Source: Flavobacteriales bacterium (GTDB lineage Bacteria; Bacteroidota; Bacteroidia; Flavobacteriales; UBA7312). From it: DNA of 64,000 nucleotides. The translations under genes and the position numbers were made by a program. The notes below the pieces were generated by a model. It did not search any database and was not told the origin of the DNA. It was given only the letters and a program-made list of their open reading frames with translations. Location of the stretch: assembly GCA_965661345.1 (NCBI GenBank), contig CBFIDK010000001.1:3896-67895 (forward strand). Reading direction: 5' to 3'. Positions 1 through 9,900 of the stretch are shown here, piece after piece (within the stretch, counting starts at the first letter, position 1; each line of letters opens with the position of its first letter).

Positions 1-386
1 GCTTCTACTAAATCGCCAATTTTATAGGGTTTAAAAATCATTATTAGCACTCCTCCAGCAAAGTTAGATAGTGATCCTTGCAAAGCTAAACCAACGGCTA
101 AACCAGCTGCGGCAATGATTGCTGCAAAAGCGGTGATGTCTACGCCTAGTGTAGATATGACTAATAGAATAAGGATAATTTTTAACGCCCAAGCCAAAAT
201 ATTATGAAAGAAACGCTGAAGAGTAATGTCATATTTGGTTTTTGTCATAAGCTTATCCAAGCCTAACATCAATTTCCGTATTACCCATGAGCCAATTAAA
301 AATATTAAGATAGCGCCCAACACTTTAGGGCCGTAGAAAGTTATGAATTCCAATGCTCTTTCGAACAAATCATTTGCTTTATCCAT
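1..386 (-). CDS. mscS: Small-conductance mechanosensitive channel (MscS family), 3' end runs off the window
   Basis: Not in the ORF track. Manual translation from ATG at 386 gives MDKANDLFERALEFITFYGPKVLGAIL...AAAGLAVGLALQGSLSNFAGGVLIMIFKPYKIGD, the MscS TM3 signature. Confidence 0.9.
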   Translation of the reverse strand, partial: MDKANDLFERALEFITFYGPKVLGAILIFLIGSWVIRKLMLGLDKLMTKTKYDITLQRFFHNILAWALKIILILLVISTLGVDITAFAAIIAAAGLAVGLALQGSLSNFAGGVLIMIFKPYKIGDLVE

Positions 387-868
387 GTTTTAAGGTTTAA
401 AATTAATGCGTAAAACTAACTAAAATGATATGAACACACAATAAGGCTTGTTAAAATTGATGCGCTTTATTCCAAATAATATTTCGGGAAGTCATGAATG
501 CTAAAGCATTTCAAGTTTTATTTTAGCACAGCTTACTCTTGCGTACACCGTGAGAGTTTTTTTATATCCTCTCTGATAGACAGTTTTTATCTTCGTTATT
601 GGCTCAATCATAACAATACTGTAGTCCAGCAACCAAACAAGTCATGAGATACGTTTTTTTCATGTTTTTTTTCATTACTTAAGTTAATACACATTAATAG
701 TGCCAAGCACACAAAAATTGCTTGACACAAAAACATAAATGAAATGTAAAGGAAGGATCGACTCGCGAAACAAGTCCAATCAAATATACATAAATTCTTA
801 AAACACCTTTTTACAGTCAGTCAAAAAACAGTTAGCCAATTAATTTACACTCATTTCAAACATTATAG

Positions 869-876
869 TATATTTG
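869..876 (+). promoter_or_regulatory. Bacteroidota sigma-A -7 element TATATTTG upstream of dnaX
   Basis: Matches TAnnTTTG, 18 nt before ATG 895. Confidence 0.65.
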
Positions 877-894
877 TTTTCCCAAATTAAATTA

Positions 895-2646
895 ATGGAA
901 AATTTTGTTGTTTCGGCTCGTAAATACCGCCCTGCCACATTCGATACCGTGGTAGGACAACAGTCCATTACATCTACCCTCAAAAACGCCATCAAAAACC
1001 AACATCTGGCACAAGCCTTTTTGTTTTGTGGTCCCAGAGGTGTCGGTAAAACGTCTTGCGCAAGAATCTTAGCAAAGACCATAAACTGCATGAATCTCAC
1101 CGAAAATATTGAGGCCTGTGATGAATGCGAATCGTGCAAAGGTTTTAACCAAAACCACTCCTTTAACATACACGAACTTGACGCCGCCTCCAACAACGGA
1201 GTAGACAAAATTCGTGAACTCGTTGACCAAGTCCGCTTTGCTCCTCAAGTAGGGAAATACAACATCTATATCATTGATGAGGTGCACATGCTTTCACAAG
1301 CCGCTTTCAATGCCTTTCTAAAGACCTTAGAAGAGCCACCAGCACATGCCCTTTTTATTCTTGCAACAACGGAAAAACATAAAATCATTCCTACGATTTT
1401 ATCGCGTTGCCAAATATTTGATTTCAAAAGAATTCAAATAGAAGATATTGCTAAACACTTGGCCTATGTTGCCAAAAATGAAGGTGTAACTGCAGAAGAA
1501 GAAGCATTGCACACCATAGCACAAAAAGCCGATGGCGCACTAAGAGATGCCCTCTCTATTTTCGATCAAATCATCAGTTTTAGCGGCAGCAACCTAACGT
1601 ACAAAGACGTTATTGCTAACCTTAACATATTAGACTACGACTATTATTTTAAAGTTGCTGATGCGCTCAACAATAATGACATCCCTAGTGCTTTGAATTT
1701 ATTCAACGACATTCTGAACAGCGGCTTTGACGGCCACCACTTCATTAACGGTTTGGGTATGCATTTTAGGAATTTGTTAGTCGCTAAAGACCCTTCAACC
1801 CTAAGTCTTCTTGAAGAAGGAGATAATGTGAAGAAAAAGTATTTGGAGCAAAGTCAAAATTGGAATCAAGACTACCTTTTGAAAGGCTTAGAATTGTGCA
1901 ACAAAGCCGATTTAAACTACAAGCTCAGCAAAAACCAACGCTTGCTAATTGAAGTTACTTTAATGCAACTTTGTAGCCTTGACTCGCTTTCAAATTCTGC
2001 TGAAAAAAAAACTTTCGTAGTTAAAAAACAGCCTCCAAAACAGGCTGAAAGTTCTGAAAAAACTGTTCAAATCACCGAAGAAGAAGAGGTAATTAGTACT
2101 GTTCCAGAAGCAATTACAAAACATAAAATTGAACTCGAAAAAAACGATAATAAGTCAATAAAAATTGTCAATTTTAAAGATAATATTGAAAAGAAGACCA
2201 TTTCAATAAAAATAAATAAGAAAGAAAAAGAAGAGGTTAAAGAGGAAGTAAAACAAGTGTTGAACGTAAAAGAAACGCCTTTCACTTTCTCCGATTTAGA
2301 AAGCGTTTGGACTGAATACAGCACGCTCAAACAAAATGAAGGAAAACACAATTTATTCTCTATCTTGAACGAAAAAAAAATAAAGCTTGAAGAAAACTAT
2401 GCCATCACACTCACGCTTGACAATAAAGTTCAAGAAGAAGTGTTAACTGAAGAAAAAACAAACTTAGTTTACTATTTAAAAGACAAACTAAACAACGATA
2501 TCCTATCTTTGAACATTCTAGTTAAACAATTAGAACAAAAAGAATTAACGGCTTACACCGATGAGGATAAGTTCAAAAAAATGGCGGAAAAAAAACCAAT
2601 ATTAATAGATTTAAAAAACCAATTCAATCTAGAACTAGATTATTAA
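895..2646 (+). CDS. dnaX: DNA polymerase III subunit gamma/tau
   Basis: ARKYRP start motif, Walker A GPRGVGKT, Zn-binding cysteines, IDEVHML, SRC motif. Start placed at ATG 895 rather than TTG 874. Confidence 0.97.
   Translation: MENFVVSARKYRPATFDTVVGQQSITSTLKNAIKNQHLAQAFLFCGPRGVGKTSCARILAKTINCMNLTENIEACDECESCKGFNQNHSFNIHELDAASNNGVDKIRELVDQVRFAPQVGKYNIYIIDEVHMLSQAAFNAFLKTLEEPPAHALFILATTEKHKIIPTILSRCQIFDFKRIQIEDIAKHLAYVAKNEGVTAEEEALHTIAQKADGALRDALSIFDQIISFSGSNLTYKDVIANLNILDYDYYFKVADALNNNDIPSALNLFNDILNSGFDGHHFINGLGMHFRNLLVAKDPSTLSLLEEGDNVKKKYLEQSQNWNQDYLLKGLELCNKADLNYKLSKNQRLLIEVTLMQLCSLDSLSNSAEKKTFVVKKQPPKQAESSEKTVQITEEEEVISTVPEAITKHKIELEKNDNKSIKIVNFKDNIEKKTISIKINKKEKEEVKEEVKQVLNVKETPFTFSDLESVWTEYSTLKQNEGKHNLFSILNEKKIKLEENYAITLTLDNKVQEEVLTEEKTNLVYYLKDKLNNDILSLNILVKQLEQKELTAYTDEDKFKKMAEKKPILIDLKNQFNLELDY
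2002..2024 (+). other. Candidate slippage/frameshift site G-A9 in dnaX
   Basis: GAAAAAAAAACTTTCGTAGTTAA: nine A's (2003-2011), TAG (2018-2020) and TAA (2022-2024) in the two alternative frames. Confidence 0.6.
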
Positions 2647-2658
2647 TCAAAAACAATT

Positions 2659-5577
2659 ATGAAAACTAAATTAACATTTATCCTCATCTTACTTGCCTTA
2701 GGATGGATAGTATTTAACGTAACAAAGGACATGAGCAACATTAAAAACAATTATGAGAGCGTTAAGAATGACCCCATGAAATCTCGCATCTATACTTTAG
2801 ATAATGGTCTAAAAGTATACCTAACCGTTTACAAAGATGCCCCCAGAGTGCAGACTTACATAGCAGTTAGAGCGGGAAGTAAAAATGACCCTGCTGATGC
2901 TACTGGCCTTGCACATTACCTTGAACACATGCTGTTTAAGGGTACTGACAAATACGGCACATTAGATTATTCAAAAGAAGCGCCAATGCTTGAAAAAATT
3001 GAAAATCTCTACGAAGAATACCGTCAAATTGATATGGCGGACACTGAAAACAGAGACAAAATTTGGGCACAAATAGATTCTGTTTCTGGTGAGGCCGCAA
3101 AATTTGCCATAGCCAACGAATACGACAAAATGATTTCTAGTGTAGGTGCAAAAGGAACCAACGCTTATACCTCTGCTGAAGCAACCGTTTACCTCAACGA
3201 TATTCCATCAAACCAATTAAAAAAGTGGTTAGACATCGAAGCAGAGCGTTTCCGCATGCCTGTATTCCGTTTATTTCATACAGAATTAGAAGCTGTTTAT
3301 GAAGAAAAAAATATTGGAATGGATACAGACGGACGTAAAATGTTCGAAGCCCTTCTTTCTGGATTATTTAAAAAACACACCTATGGTACTCAAACTACCA
3401 TTGGAACAGTTGAGCACTTAAAAAATCCTTCAATAAAAGAAATTAGAAAATACTTTAACAAAAATTATGTGCCAAACAACATGGCAATTTGTATGTCAGG
3501 AGATTTTGATCCTGATTCTGTAATTACTTGGGTGAACGAAAAATTTGGCTCTTTTGAACGAAAAGAAGATCCCGAATTTATTCCTGGTGTTGAAGATCCT
3601 TTAACAGAATCTATAGTGAAAGATGTATATGGCCCAGATGCTGAACGTTTATACCTAGGCTATCGCTTCCCAGGCTCGAAAGACAGAGAAACACAAGTCA
3701 TGAGAATTATTGATATGATTCTTAGCAACAGCCAAGCTGGACTTATTGACCTAAACCTTAACCAAGGACAAAAAGTATTGCAAGCCAGCTGTTTCCCATA
3801 CATACTTACCGATTATAGTACGCACATCGTATATGGCTCGCCCAAGCAAGGTCAATCGCTTGATGAAGTAAAAGACTTACTAATTGGAGAAGTTGAAAAG
3901 GTTAAAAATGGTGACTTCCCAGACTGGTTAATTCCAGCCATCATTAGTGACATGAAACTATCAAAAATCAAAACATACGAAAGCAACAATTCAAGAGCTG
4001 ACGAATTTGTCAAAGCATTTATTCAAGAAATAGAATGGGAAGATTATGTCAAAGAAATGGATGTTCTTGAAAGCATTACCAAAGAAGAAGTAGTTGAAGT
4101 CGCTAACAAATACTACAATAATTATGTGTTGGTTAGAAAAAATCTTGGTGAAGATAAAAGTGTCATAAAAGTAACTAAACCCGCTATCACACCAGTTGAA
4201 GTCAATAGAGATGCACAGTCTGATTTCTTAAAAGCAATTACCGAGGCAGAAGTCAATGAAGTTGAACCAGAGTTCTTAAATTACGAAGACGATATACAAC
4301 AAACTGATATTGGCGTTCCTTTTGTACACAAACAAAACACAGAAAATAGCCGATTTAAACTATACTATATTAGTGACAGAGGAAACAATCACGATAAAAA
4401 ACTTAGTATGGCTATTGAATACTTCAACTACTTAGGAACCGAAGATATTTCTCCGGCTCAAAAGAAAGAAGAGTTCTATAAATTAGGTTGTGAAGTTTCA
4501 GTAAGCAGTCAAAATGATCAAAGTTATATTTCACTATCAGGACTTGACGATAATTTCGAAGCCTCTGTTGGTCTTTTCGAGAAACTATTATCAAATGTGG
4601 TCGGTGACGAAGAAGCGCTTGAAAATCTAAAAATGGATGTGCTTAAAAAAAGAGCAGATGCCAAATTAAACAAGCGTACCATACTGTATAGCGGAATGAA
4701 TAACTACGCTAAATACGGACCAAACAATCCGTTTACCAATACCCTATCGGACGAAGAAATCATGGCAACCACCTCTGAAGAGTTAATCGAGATTATTCGA
4801 AACTTAACTTCTTATGACCACAGAGTGCTGTACTATGGGCCTAAATCATTTGAAGATGCCTCAGCATCGGTAAAAAGTTTACACCCATTGAAAGATGATC
4901 TTATTCCAATTACAGAAATCAATGATTTTGTTGAGTTGGACATAAACAAGACATCTGTTTATGTAGTGGATTATGACATGAAACAAGCCGAAATTCTAAT
5001 GGTTTCAAAAGGAGAAACATTCAACTCTGAAAAAATGCCATTGATTAAATTACACAATGAATATTTCGGTGGAAGTATGGGAAGTATTGTTTTCCAAACC
5101 TTGAGAGAATCAAAAGCTTTAGCATATTCTGTATACAGCACTTATAGCTCTCCAAGAGAAGAAGATAAAGCGCATTACGTAATGGCGTATATTGGTACAC
5201 AAGCCGATAAACTAAAAGAAGCCATGATAGGAATGAATGAATTGCTGGATGAGCTTCCTGAAGTTGAAGCAAACTTGGAAAACGCTAAGGATGCCGTCAT
5301 TCAAAAAATTCGAACGGAAAGAATCACCAAAGACAGAGTGCTATTTAACTATGAATCAGCCAAACGACTTGGTTATGACTATGACTCAAGAAAAGACATC
5401 TATGAAAACATAGAACAATTCGACATGGCTACTCTGACAGACTTCCACAACAACTATATGAGTGGAAAAGAATATACCATTCTCGTATTAGGAGATAAAG
5501 ATAACTTAGATATAAAAACGCTTAGAGAGTACGGAGAAGTAAAATTCCTGACTTTAGAAGATGTTTTCGGTTACTAA
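2659..5577 (+). CDS. M16 family (insulinase/PqqL-like) zinc peptidase with N-terminal membrane/signal segment
   Basis: Inverted zincin motif [19 protein letters not shown]-terminal RESKALAY half; 972 aa. Confidence 0.92.
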
Positions 5578-5581
5578 ATAG

Positions 5582-5589
5582 TACATTTG
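5582..5589 (+). promoter_or_regulatory. -7 promoter element TACATTTG upstream of icd
   Basis: TAnnTTTG in the short intergenic gap before ATG 5616. Confidence 0.6.
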
Positions 5590-5615
5590 CAAACTTAAAA
5601 ATTGAATATAAAATA

Positions 5616-6842
5616 ATGAGCAAAATTAAAGTAGACAATCCAGTAGTTGAGTTGGATGGAGATGAAATGACAAGAATCATTTGGAAATTTATCAAAGACA
5701 AATTAATCTTACCATACCTAGATCTAGACATTAAGTATTACGATTTAGGAATGGAAAGTCGGGACAACTCCGATGATCAAATTACTGTTGATGCTGCCAA
5801 TGCTATCAAAAAATACAAAGTAGGTATTAAATGCGCTACCATTACTCCTGACGAAGAACGTGTTGAAGAGTTTGGACTAAAGAAAATGTGGCGTTCACCA
5901 AACGGTACCATTAGAAATATTGTTGGTGGCACGGTGTTTAGAGAGCCCATTATTTGTAAAAATGTACCACGATTAGTGCCAAACTGGACGCAGCCAATCT
6001 GTATAGGTCGTCATGCTTTTGGTGACCAATACAAAGCGACAGACACGGTAATAAAAGGACAAGGAAAACTAACCATGACTTTCACTCCTGAAAATGGAGA
6101 GGAAGTTTCATGGGAAGTATATCAATTTGAGGGTCAAGGTGGCGTAGCCATGAGTATGTATAACACAGACGAATCGATTTATGGTTTTGCAAGATCATGC
6201 TTCAACCAAGCACTTGCTAAAGGATGGCCATTATATCTATCAACAAAAAACACAATCCTCAAAGCCTATGACGGACGATTCAAAGATATTTTTGAAGAAG
6301 TCTATCAAAACGAGTTTAAAGCTGAATTCGATAAAGCTGGTATTATCTACGAACATAGATTAATCGATGATATGGTAGCCTCTGCTTTAAAATGGAATGG
6401 CGCTTTTGTATGGGCGTGTAAAAACTACGATGGCGATGTACAATCTGATACTGTAGCTCAAGGTTTTGGTTCATTAGGCTTAATGACTTCTACACTTGTT
6501 ACCCCAGAAGGAGATGTAATGGAAGCTGAAGCAGCACACGGAACAGTAACTCGCCATTACAGACAACATCAACAAGGTAAGAAAACCTCAACAAATCCTA
6601 TTGCCTCTATTTTTGCTTGGACAAGAGGATTGGCATTCAGAGGAAAATTAGACAACAACCATAAACTAATTGACTTCTGTCAAACCTTAGAAGATGTTTG
6701 TGTCGAAACCGTTGAAAGTGGCATTATGACTAAAGACCTAGCGCTTTGTATTCACGGTAAAGACCTAAATGAAAGTCACTACGTCGTTACTGAAGACTTT
6801 TTAGAAGCACTAGATAATGGTTTGAAGTTGAAAATGGGTTAA
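5616..6842 (+). CDS. icd: NADP-dependent isocitrate dehydrogenase (homodimeric, subfamily II)
   Basis: [45 protein letters not shown]. Confidence 0.97.
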
Positions 6843-6877
6843 AAACCATTTTTATTTTTCATTTTAAAAACCTATTT

Positions 6878-6904
6878 TTATAGGGTTAAATAATAACCCT
6901 ATAA
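6878..6904. repeat. Perfect 11-bp inverted repeat TTATAGGGTTA-N5-TAACCCTATAA just before the PNGase-like gene
   Basis: Arms at 6878-6888 and 6894-6904; ATG at 6907. Confidence 0.8.
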
Positions 6905-6906
6905 GA

Positions 6907-9900
6907 ATGAAAAAAATATCACTACTACTAGTATTCACTATCTCTTTAATAGCTTCCTTAAAAGCTCAACAAGCTGGTGACACAATTGTCATTGAATCTT
7001 TCAATTACACACAAACCTACGGCATTAACCAATGGTCTCCAGGAATGCGAGATACTGTCATTGACTTTTCTGTTTTGCCTGATGTGCCAATCGAAAAAGT
7101 ACTGATGCTGTACAATATGAGGTGCAAAGACAACAAGGTGTCAAACTCTCAAAACAGAGACCAAGGTTGTGGAGAATGGGATGCATCGTGCAACACTTAC
7201 CTTCACGACTCTACAAGAGTAGATTCTTTACTTAACACCCATCCAAATTTTACCATTTCAAACTTTAGTGGAACTTCATTTGACTTCACCACCCAAGAAG
7301 TATATGACTACTACCTTTACGAGCAAGAAAATATTAATGTAAATAGCGTGACTAATGAAGCTTCTTTCCAAATATCAAATGGTAATTTAACGGATAATGA
7401 ATCTCTCAATGGAAGTCAATATTCAGGAAAATCTCAATTCTTATACACAGCCAGCGAACTAATGTCTGCAGGCTTTAGTGCTGGAGAAATAGATGGCTTA
7501 GAATTAGAAAGCACTAATACCTCTTCAATAAACTTCCTTAAAATTAACATAAAACATACCTCATTAACGGAGTTGGACCCAAAAAATCCTAGTCTTAATG
7601 ATTTTACTGAAGTATTTAATTACAATCACAATTTTGTAAACGGTTCAAATAAAATAATTTTCTCAGCACCCTTCGTTTGGAATGGAGTGGACAACCTAAT
7701 TATTGAGTTTTCATTCACCAATTCAACATCAACTAGTGCTGTTGAGCTTTTAGCTGAAAACTCATCAAATAACAGCATCTACGCTAACAATGGTTATAGT
7801 GTAGACTTCACAGGCTATGTTGGTGTTGAAATCCCTGTTGATTCTTTATCTTCTATTTCTGATGAAATTAGCGTCTCGTGTTGGGTTAATGGCCATGCTG
7901 ATTTACTGCCATCAAACACTTCTGTTTTTGAAGCTTACGATGAAACTGACAATAGAACGTTGAATGTACATCTTCCATGGTCTAATAGTAGAATGTATTT
8001 TGACTGTGGTAACACTAGTAATAGTTATGATAGAATTGACAAAGAAGCCAATACAAATGAAATTGAAGGCCAATGGAACCATTGGGCATTTACTAAAAAC
8101 ACCACAACTGGTGAGATGAAAATTTATCTTAACGGAACCCTTTGGCACAGCGGCAATGAAAAAACAAAACCTGTTAACATTTCAAAAATGATAGTAGGTA
8201 ATGGTATAAACTTGAACTATAATTACAAGGGTCTAATTGATGAATTAAGAATTTGGAACAAAGAGTTGACGGAAAATGAAATTAATGATTGGAAAAACAT
8301 TTCAATTGATAATTCACATCCTAACTTCAACAACCTAGTAGCTTATTATAAATTTGATGAAGGGACTGATACCATTATAAATGATGATGCAAATGGACTA
8401 ATGGCTAACGCGCCAAATTCTTCCATATGGAATAATACACGAGGGAATAAACTCAATCGCTTTTTCACCTCAAACACAAAACGCCCAAAACTCGCATTAG
8501 TAAGAGGGGACTATTCCATAAGCACAACTACTATTACAACGGCCGATTCAGTTTTACAAAATCCTCATGTAGTTAGAGAATATACTATCACTCAAAATAA
8601 CGGGATTTTCGAGGATGATGAAGTGGTTGTAGTTTCAGAAAACAGTTATTGGGGAACTCTTTCTACAGTTTACAATGGAGATAGTGGACAAGAAATTTCA
8701 TCCTCAAACGTAAACGCAGAGGGTACAATTAACATTGAAACACTAGAATATTTTGGAAGATATCCATCTCAAATTGGCATAATGTCGTTCGTAACTCCCT
8801 ATGGTTTGGGCTTAGATTTAGGTCCAGAAGGAAAAACATGGACATTTGACATGACCGACTACCTGCCTATTTTCAAAGGAAAAAGAAGAATGACTATGAA
8901 TGGAGGCGGACAATGGATGGAAGATATGGACATTAAGTTTCTATTTATTTTGGGTACACCTCCAAGAGATGTACTTGACTTTCGACAAATATGGAGACCT
9001 ACTCATAGATCCTATGGCTTAATAGAAAGTGATCGTTACTTTGCGCCAAGAGATGTTAGTCTTCATCCGGATGGAAAATACTTCAAAATTCGTTCTGCCA
9101 TTACTGGACATGGACAAGAAGGTGAATTTATCCCTAGACAACACTTCATAAATATTAATGGCGGCTCCACAGAGTTTTATTGGCAAGTATGGAAAGAATG
9201 TGCAGACAATCCCATTTACCCTCAAGGAGGAACATGGATTTACGATCGTGCTGGCTGGTGTCCTGGTGCACCAACAAATGTTGAACAGTTAGATATTACA
9301 GCACAGGTTAGCAATAATTTTCAAGTAAATATTGATTATGGCGTACTAAATGCTAGTGGAACTTCTGACTACACCGTAAACAACCAAATCGTTACTTATG
9401 GAGAGATTAACCACAGCTTAGACGCAAGCGTTGTTGAAGTAATAGAACCCTCAAATAGAGTAGAATTTAGTAGGTTTAACTCCATTTGCCATACTCCAAA
9501 AGTGGTAATTAAAAATACAGGTCAAACCGAACTTACTTCACTTACGATAAAGTATTGGATAAACGATGCTCCTAATCCTCACATTTACAATTGGAGTGGA
9601 AGTCTTGAATTTGACGAAAGTGAAATTGTAAACCTACCTTCACCCCTTTCTTTGTGGTCAGCTGTTAACTCATCAGGCAATGTATTTCATGTTGAGGTAA
9701 CGTCACCAAATGGCGGTGCAGATGAATATATCCACAATAATTTTTACCATTCAAAATTTGAAATTCCAGCAGTATTACCAGAAGAAATTGTCATTTTTTT
9801 CAAAACCAATAACGCAGCTAATGAAAGTAGCTATAAAATAATTGATAGTGAAGGTAATAGCGTTTTAACTAGAAGCGGGATGACTAATGGCACCCTTTAT

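Follow-up and report, generated by a model that had tools for sequence, protein, structure and literature searches.

A conserved nine-adenine run at the gamma/tau junction of dnaX in a Flavobacteriales bacterium, a probable site of transcriptional slippage

The stretch of DNA analysed here, called the window throughout, comprises 64 kb of the genome of a Flavobacteriales bacterium (1.83 Mb, 35.4% guanine plus cytosine, GC) and carries the clamp-loader gene dnaX, which contains a run of nine adenines (A9) at the junction between the part common to the tau and gamma forms of DnaX and the part found in tau only. The gene product was identified as DnaX by the NCBIfam model PRK14971 (785.5 bits, cut-off 685), and the model TIGR02397 (dnaX_nterm) spanned amino acids (aa) 6-360. 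Pfam placed the ATPase domain at aa 22-180, the lid at aa 185-231 and domain III (DNA_pol3_gamma3) at aa 246-369. The run starts at codon 370, directly after the end of domain III and hence at the boundary between the clamp-loader core and the tau-only part. The longest open reading frame (ORF) extends from 874 to 2646 with a TTG start, and the alignment with relatives begins at the ATG at 895, with which the run context GAA AAA AAA ACT TTC GTA GTT is in frame. Coordinates of all features are given in Table 1.

Table 1. Features of dnaX and its A9 run in window coordinates
Feature	Position	Strand	Basis
dnaX, frame 0, encoding tau	895..2646	+	ORF, 583 aa, 66.5 kDa; NCBIfam PRK14971, Pfam delta2, lid, gamma3
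Segment common to tau and predicted gamma, aa 1-372 (ATPase, lid, domain III)	895..2010	+	Pfam and TIGR02397 extents
A9 slippery run (GAA AAA AAA A), codons 370-373	2003..2011	+	Sequence; kept in relatives
TAG stop, +1 frame (1 A fewer or 2 more), ...EKKLS-stop, 374 aa	2018..2020	+	Translation
TAA stop, -1 frame (1 A more or 2 fewer), ...EKKNFRS-stop, 376 aa	2022..2024	+	Translation
Tau-only C-terminal part (linker and C-terminal domains), needs 9 or 9 ± 3n A's	2012..2646	+	Full-length alignment to relatives' tau

Counted from the start of the run, frame 0 stays open for 214 codons, and the stops in the other two frames lie 2 codons (+1) and 4 codons (-1) past the run. In the unchanged window DNA the +1 frame reads LS and then TAG, while the -1 frame reads NFRS and then TAA. 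The predicted gamma forms would have molecular weights of 42.0 kDa (+1 frame) and 42.3 kDa (-1 frame). The original prediction for this DNA had located an A9 in dnaX near residue 370, at the point where the clamp-loader domains end, and had derived the two shortened products and their stop codons from it; the sequence, the translations and the Pfam end of domain III agreed with it in every detail.

Relatives were searched in 41 genomes, taken from the organism's own genome, its genus, its family and its order. A dnaX gene was found in 38 of them, the other three being incomplete genomes with paralogue-level matches only. Inspection of these 38 loci (L001-L030 and L111-L118) revealed A9 to A12 at the homologous position in 37. 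In the window's family, all 20 recovered dnaX genes showed the run (17 with A9 and 3 with A10). One of the 20 ends at a contig edge just past the run, and in the codon alignment of the 19 complete genes the run was unbroken in every case, i.e. these homologues do not interrupt it with AAG or GAG. A wider sample was obtained by an N-terminal alignment scan of species-representative genomes, from which 80 named Bacteroidota loci were taken as the best 80 of at least 600 matches. One of the 80 duplicates L002, giving 117 distinct loci, and 116 of these were assessable, as L091 ends before the site. In this sample of relatives and best 80 matches, a run of A9 to A13 was present in 103 of the 116 loci, with lengths of A9 in 22, A10 in 71, A11 in 7, A12 in 2 and A13 in 1. 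Run-bearing records include named Pedobacter, Hymenobacter, Dyadobacter, Saprospiraceae, Parabacteroides, Alistipes and Flavobacterium. Strains of Aequorivita, Aquimarina and Pedobacter combine A10 with tau in frame 0.

The frame layout around the run could be typed in 101 loci. Tau lies in frame 0 in 76 of them, as in the window. In the other 25, frame 0 stops 4-10 codons after the start of the run and is followed by an open frame exceeding 200 aa, which is reached by one additional A in 21 loci and by one A fewer in 4. The shifted frame was homologous to the C-terminus of tau in five of the six loci L025-L030 (tblastn). G025, a complete genome on a single contig, and L105, the assembly of a Flavobacterium psychrotolerans isolate, both show this two-ORF layout, and the two-ORF relatives include Flavobacteriales, the window's own order, at the homologous run. 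The layout is absent in the window itself, where tau is in frame 0 and no frameshift is seen at the DNA level. Because tau requires one A more or one A fewer at the run in these 25 relatives, recoding there is obligatory, and the run is accordingly a working recoding site in the phylum. Tau is described as the form holding the polymerase (in the account given in PMC4756838), and a split dnaX can be tolerated only where much of the gene's expression passes the run in the shifted frame. Where dnaX recoding is near 50% efficiency, a single nucleotide change swaps the roles, as set out in a passage of PMC5009743.

A quick, unrooted tree (FastTree; 116 rows, without L031 and L091) was built from the 345 N-terminal residues and required, by parsimony, at least 17 changes of frame layout, at least 16 of run length and at least 6 of run presence, all of which are rough lower bounds. 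A9 was found in none of the 25 two-ORF loci vs 22 of the 76 in-frame loci (Fisher p = 0.0014). A link between run length and layout was nevertheless set aside, being confounded by the fact that 17 of the 22 A9 loci come from one family; the absence of A9 from split genes hints at a need for a longer, more slippery run.

Sequence beside the run varied, with at most 0.5 bit of information in every column of the 30 nucleotides (nt) on either side in the 103 run-bearing loci. The run itself was found in all three codon phases, encoding peptides such as EKKT, TKKKI, AKKKT, PKKKV and LKKK, among others. A second A9 in the window's dnaX (2372-2380; E493 K494 K495), inside the tau-only part, served as a control. 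It is peculiar to this genome and, unlike the gamma/tau run, is broken in the closest relatives, which write the E-K-K-I/F site (aa 493-496) as GAG AAA AAG, GAA AAG AAG or GAA AAG AAA. Interruption by GAG/AAG in homologues, which the original prediction had named as counting against it, was thus seen at the control site and not at the gamma/tau run, and the prediction withstood this check. Since the flanks vary, the codon phase varies and the control site is broken while the run is unbroken, selection acts on the nucleotides of the run and not on the protein.

Off-frame stops were also found near the run in the relatives. Taking the more distant of the two off-frame stops at each of the 76 in-frame loci, the median distance past the run was 5 codons, and in all 76 the stops were nearer than elsewhere in the N-terminal part of the same gene (p ≤ 0.5 in 76, p ≤ 0.2 in 57 and p ≤ 0.1 in 36, median p 0.10). 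As the loci are kin, these close off-frame stops are to be read as a trend, which holds also in GC-rich genes despite the scarcity of such stops there. The stops of the window were not used as stand-alone evidence, for which they are weak: of randomly chosen coding positions in this genome, 11% have both off-frame stops within 4 codons and 21% have them within 6. Weight was given only to the pooled comparison inside the relatives' own genes.

Long runs of A were scarce in the remainder of the DNA. On both strands of the window only two A9/T9 runs were present, both in dnaX, vs an expectation of 20.27 ± 6.72 from 100 dinucleotide-preserving shuffles. Genome-wide, 20 runs of at least nine were located in proxy coding sequence (1469 long ORFs, 91.2% of the genome DNA) vs 58 in the other 8.8%, and on the sense strand 175 A8 runs stood against 13 A9 runs. 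The peptide E-K-K, counted in ORFs of at least 200 aa wherever the next codon begins with A, was written GAA AAA AAA in 5 of 60 cases, where codon usage (GAA 0.773, AAA 0.779) predicts 47%. Long A runs have been purged from this genome despite its AT-richness, and the A9 of dnaX is beyond chance. Avoidance of 9-mers was taken as a mark of slippage in an organism by Baranov et al. (2005; PMC1088944), and the avoidance observed here matches that mark.

Many of the 20 coding runs were situated no more than 60 codons into a proxy ORF, the true start of which may be downstream. An A12 run at genome contig C3:48408 and several A9/T9 runs (about 12 other sites) are of this kind, and they may either precede real start codons or be further slippage-prone sites. 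At the second A9 of dnaX, one A fewer leads to an immediate TAA (2381-2383) and one A more to NKA-stop; should the polymerase slip at each A9, some tau mRNAs would encode a tau ending at about aa 495-498.

No consistent RNA structure was detected beside the run in the 101 loci, the mean z-score of the minimum free energy being -0.53 upstream and -0.54 downstream, with values below -2 in 11 loci upstream and 7 downstream. Likewise, no conserved hairpin or Shine-Dalgarno-like element was seen beside the run in the relatives' loci examined. A 6-bp hairpin (CAGCCT..AGGCTG) about 18 nt downstream of the run, drawn by eye in the window, was rejected, as the closest relatives do not preserve it. The in-phase heptamer within the run is A_AAA_AAA, followed by ACT, and contains no AAG. 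Among the 32 tRNAs found in the genome, one was a tRNA-Lys (UUU).

Three metatranscriptome runs (Logan contigs) and one DNA run were compared with positions 1-8000 of the window. Contigs of dnaX were present in the three metatranscriptome libraries at a depth of about 1-4, and one RNA contig of 221 nt has its first base at 2007, within the run. From DNA run X3, an independent contig of 1618 nt spans the run without a gap and reads A9.

We consider it probable, from the comparison of these sequences, that Thermus-type transcriptional slippage at codons 370-373 of dnaX is the main route by which the run is used, and the run most likely lets the cell make both tau and gamma from one gene. The original prediction of a Thermus-like recoding site with tau in frame 0 thus gained support from the conservation of the run (20 of 20 family genes, and beyond), from the broken control site, from the 25 recoding-dependent relatives and from the off-frame stops, which are closer to the run than elsewhere in the gene throughout the in-frame loci. 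In the mechanism proposed, the nascent RNA would slip on its template as RNA polymerase copies the run, yielding mRNAs with one or more extra A's, or with fewer. Messages with 9 A's (or 12, or 6) would encode the 583-aa tau. With other numbers of A's, the ribosome would stop 2-4 codons past the run and release a gamma of 374 or 376 aa, which would end just past domain III and lack the tau-only C-terminal third. We infer slippage in this organism, its efficiency and the polymerase as the slipping machine.

Several points weigh against this reading. A -1 ribosomal shift on A_AAA_AAA yields the same frame as one extra A, and the organism resembles E. coli in its single tRNA-Lys (UUU), a species in which ribosomes slide on poly-A (as reported in PMC4363877). 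The run was missing from 13 of the 116 assessable loci, mostly Bacteroidaceae, indicating that it is dispensable in some lineages, and the loci are kin, so that the counts overstate their independence. Miscounted homopolymers in the assembly of metagenome bins could account for some of the two-ORF calls. Against this, the layout is also present in isolate and complete genomes. Here L072 and L105 are informative: they have the same A10 in the same phase and differ in the sequence downstream, so the layouts are not all miscounted homopolymers. The two off-frame stops of the window are individually unremarkable in an AT-rich genome. Finally, no RNA contig (depth 2-3) spans the run, a result that bears neither way on slippage.

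A different account would keep the run as a true recoding site and transfer the slip to translation, with ribosomes shifting -1 on A_AAA_AAA, or sliding on poly-A, on a homogeneous mRNA and ending at the off-frame stops. We regard this as unlikely, although the in-phase heptamer is contained in the run, the -1 frame is the one needed by 21 of the 25 two-ORF relatives, and E. coli ribosomes, which face the same lone Lys tRNA, not only slide on consecutive AAA codons but also terminate out of frame, as described in PMC4363877. The polymerase is favoured because the distribution of run lengths has a sharp lower edge at 9, although seven A's would suffice for a ribosomal heptamer, and because neither sequence nor structure is conserved in the flanks, so that a stimulator is missing upstream as well as downstream. 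It is further favoured because tau is reached by shifts in both directions, four relatives needing the +1 frame, and because the identical layout in Thermus has been assigned to transcription in the accounts given in PMC1088944 and PMC5009743. The lean of 21:4 towards an additional A also fits the insertion bias of slippage as outlined in PMC5009743, where A_AAA_AAA is moreover rated as far less shift-prone than A_AAA_AAG in E. coli. Transcriptional and translational slipping could act together.

A role in decoding might also be denied altogether, if Lys-Lys were needed at the domain III boundary, AAA were preferred in AT-rich genomes and gamma were not made. AAA does account for 78% of the Lys codons of this genome, another A run of the gene, the A7 of F-K-K-M (aa 562-565), is also well conserved in the family, and off-frame stops are common here. 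Nevertheless, such an explanation is highly improbable. E-K-K-A runs were broken in 55 of the 60 cases in the genome, and the residues around the junction run vary together with its codon phase. Moreover, the run was retained in genes of 55-61% GC (L045, L047, L099, L108 and L114), GC-rich relatives keeping A10 although Lys is mostly written AAG elsewhere in that gene, and the 25 two-ORF relatives require recoding for tau. Least probable of all is a mutable tract at the DNA level that toggles tau in the population by slipped-strand mispairing, as in phase variation: the numerous changes of frame layout and run length on the relatives' tree would suit it, as would the DNA indels that arise at or near the run and become fixed, but dnaX is single and essential, so that switching tau off would kill the cell unless recoding supplied it, the independent DNA contig from X3 reads A9, and the stops in both other frames would be left unexplained.

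The 13 loci without the run fell into a few types. Ten belong to the gut/rumen branch and carry the labels Bacteroidaceae, Bacteroides or Bacteroidales, with one bin assigned to Bacteroidetes and another to Oscillospiraceae among them; the others were one Pontibacter (A7), one Bacteroidota bin (A6) and one genome of 345 kb. In the Bacteroidaceae-type loci L053, L057, L087, L090, L096, L098 and L104, the run has been lost, a G-x-G-R-S/R-P motif is present at about aa 365-375 and tau is in frame. In L064 and L086, from Bacteroidales/Bacteroidetes bins, frame 0 ends at aa 383 and 367, respectively, and neither an A run nor a slippery heptamer lies close by; this is a split or truncated dnaX layout. 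The 345-kb genome, which is of the same order as the window, encodes a DnaX of 345 aa (L116; G036:C1:271548-275564) without the A run and without the downstream tau part, which gives this reduced genome a clamp loader of the gamma form only.

Programmed transcriptional slippage in dnaX of Thermus thermophilus (Larsen et al. 2000) is described in PMC1088944 and PMC5009743. According to these accounts, the window matches the Thermus gene in every feature of the layout: both have a sense-strand A9, tau in frame 0 and nearby stops in each of the alternative frames, and in both cases any number of A's other than 9 ± 3n gives gamma, although for the window this is a prediction. The two differ in phylum and in that slippage has been shown experimentally in Thermus, whereas here it is deduced from comparison. 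Antonov et al. (2013; PMC3711429) described, in their section on one GeneTack cluster, 17 two-ORF dnaX genes in 12 genera in which tau needs recoding; nine of the 17 genes have A10, and those of Chlorobi have A7-A9. These genes resemble the present ones in having poly-A, mostly A10, at the gamma/tau junction, and their two-ORF layout is shared by the 25 relatives. Unlike them, the window has tau in frame 0, so a frameshift finder such as GeneTack would miss it. The description of that cluster reports -1 cases only, whereas four of the loci collected here need the +1 frame. On the features described in that section, the window site is an in-frame sibling of these two-ORF genes.

In dnaX of E. 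coli, -1 frameshifting occurs on A_AAA_AAG with an upstream Shine-Dalgarno-like element and a downstream stem-loop, according to the summaries in PMC3711429 and PMC5009743. The gene, the boundary after domain III and the outcome of gamma plus tau (predicted for the window) are the same. Unlike the E. coli site as summarised there, the window has a heptamer without the final AAG, no conserved flanking stimulators and a run longer than a heptamer needs. A site of the E. coli type was therefore ruled out, there being no AAG and no stimulators. In Blochmannia, homopolymer-tract frameshifts, including one in dnaX, are thought to be corrected by transcriptional slippage, as discussed in PMC3017870; a poly-A tract and slippage invoked to restore tau are thus common to both. 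That tract is, however, described as lying downstream of the gamma site, within the segment unique to tau, where it is interpreted as decay that a reduced genome tolerates. In this respect it is closer to the second, unconserved A9 of the window.

In the literature searched, which left subscription journals outside, no description of an in-frame run in Bacteroidetes or Flavobacteria was found, the relevant sources being Antonov et al. (2013) and general reviews only. Truncating cases were deliberately excluded from the screen of Baranov et al. (2005), as stated in PMC1088944. The mechanism itself is already known, from Thermus and from Antonov et al. (2013), and the site is mechanistically ordinary.

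Another observation from the contig comparison concerns window positions 6409-6675, within the ORF 5616-6842. In all four runs the contig depth there was 10-20 times that of the flanks, with many loose ends, and no Rfam match was obtained for this segment. The segment is shared, in conserved form, by many organisms of the samples.

To our knowledge, gamma has been demonstrated experimentally in few species. The survey argues that gamma is under selection across Bacteroidota and that slippage at runs of nine or more is efficient in these bacteria, which would account for the purging of such runs from other genes. Taken as one joint proposition, namely that the junction run is ancestral to Bacteroidota, that it slips so well that the frame in the DNA barely matters, that tau has toggled at least 17 times among frame 0, one A more and one A fewer, and that most of the phylum, with every in-frame case missed by frameshift finders among it, makes both DnaX forms in this way, we judge the case to be evenly balanced. 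Neither gene callers nor frameshift finders can see an in-frame poly-A site, and the genomes of these organisms are consequently annotated with one DnaX product only. For the window, the practical gain is an annotation note rather than a new mechanism; for Bacteroidota in general, split dnaX genes should not be annotated as pseudogenes.

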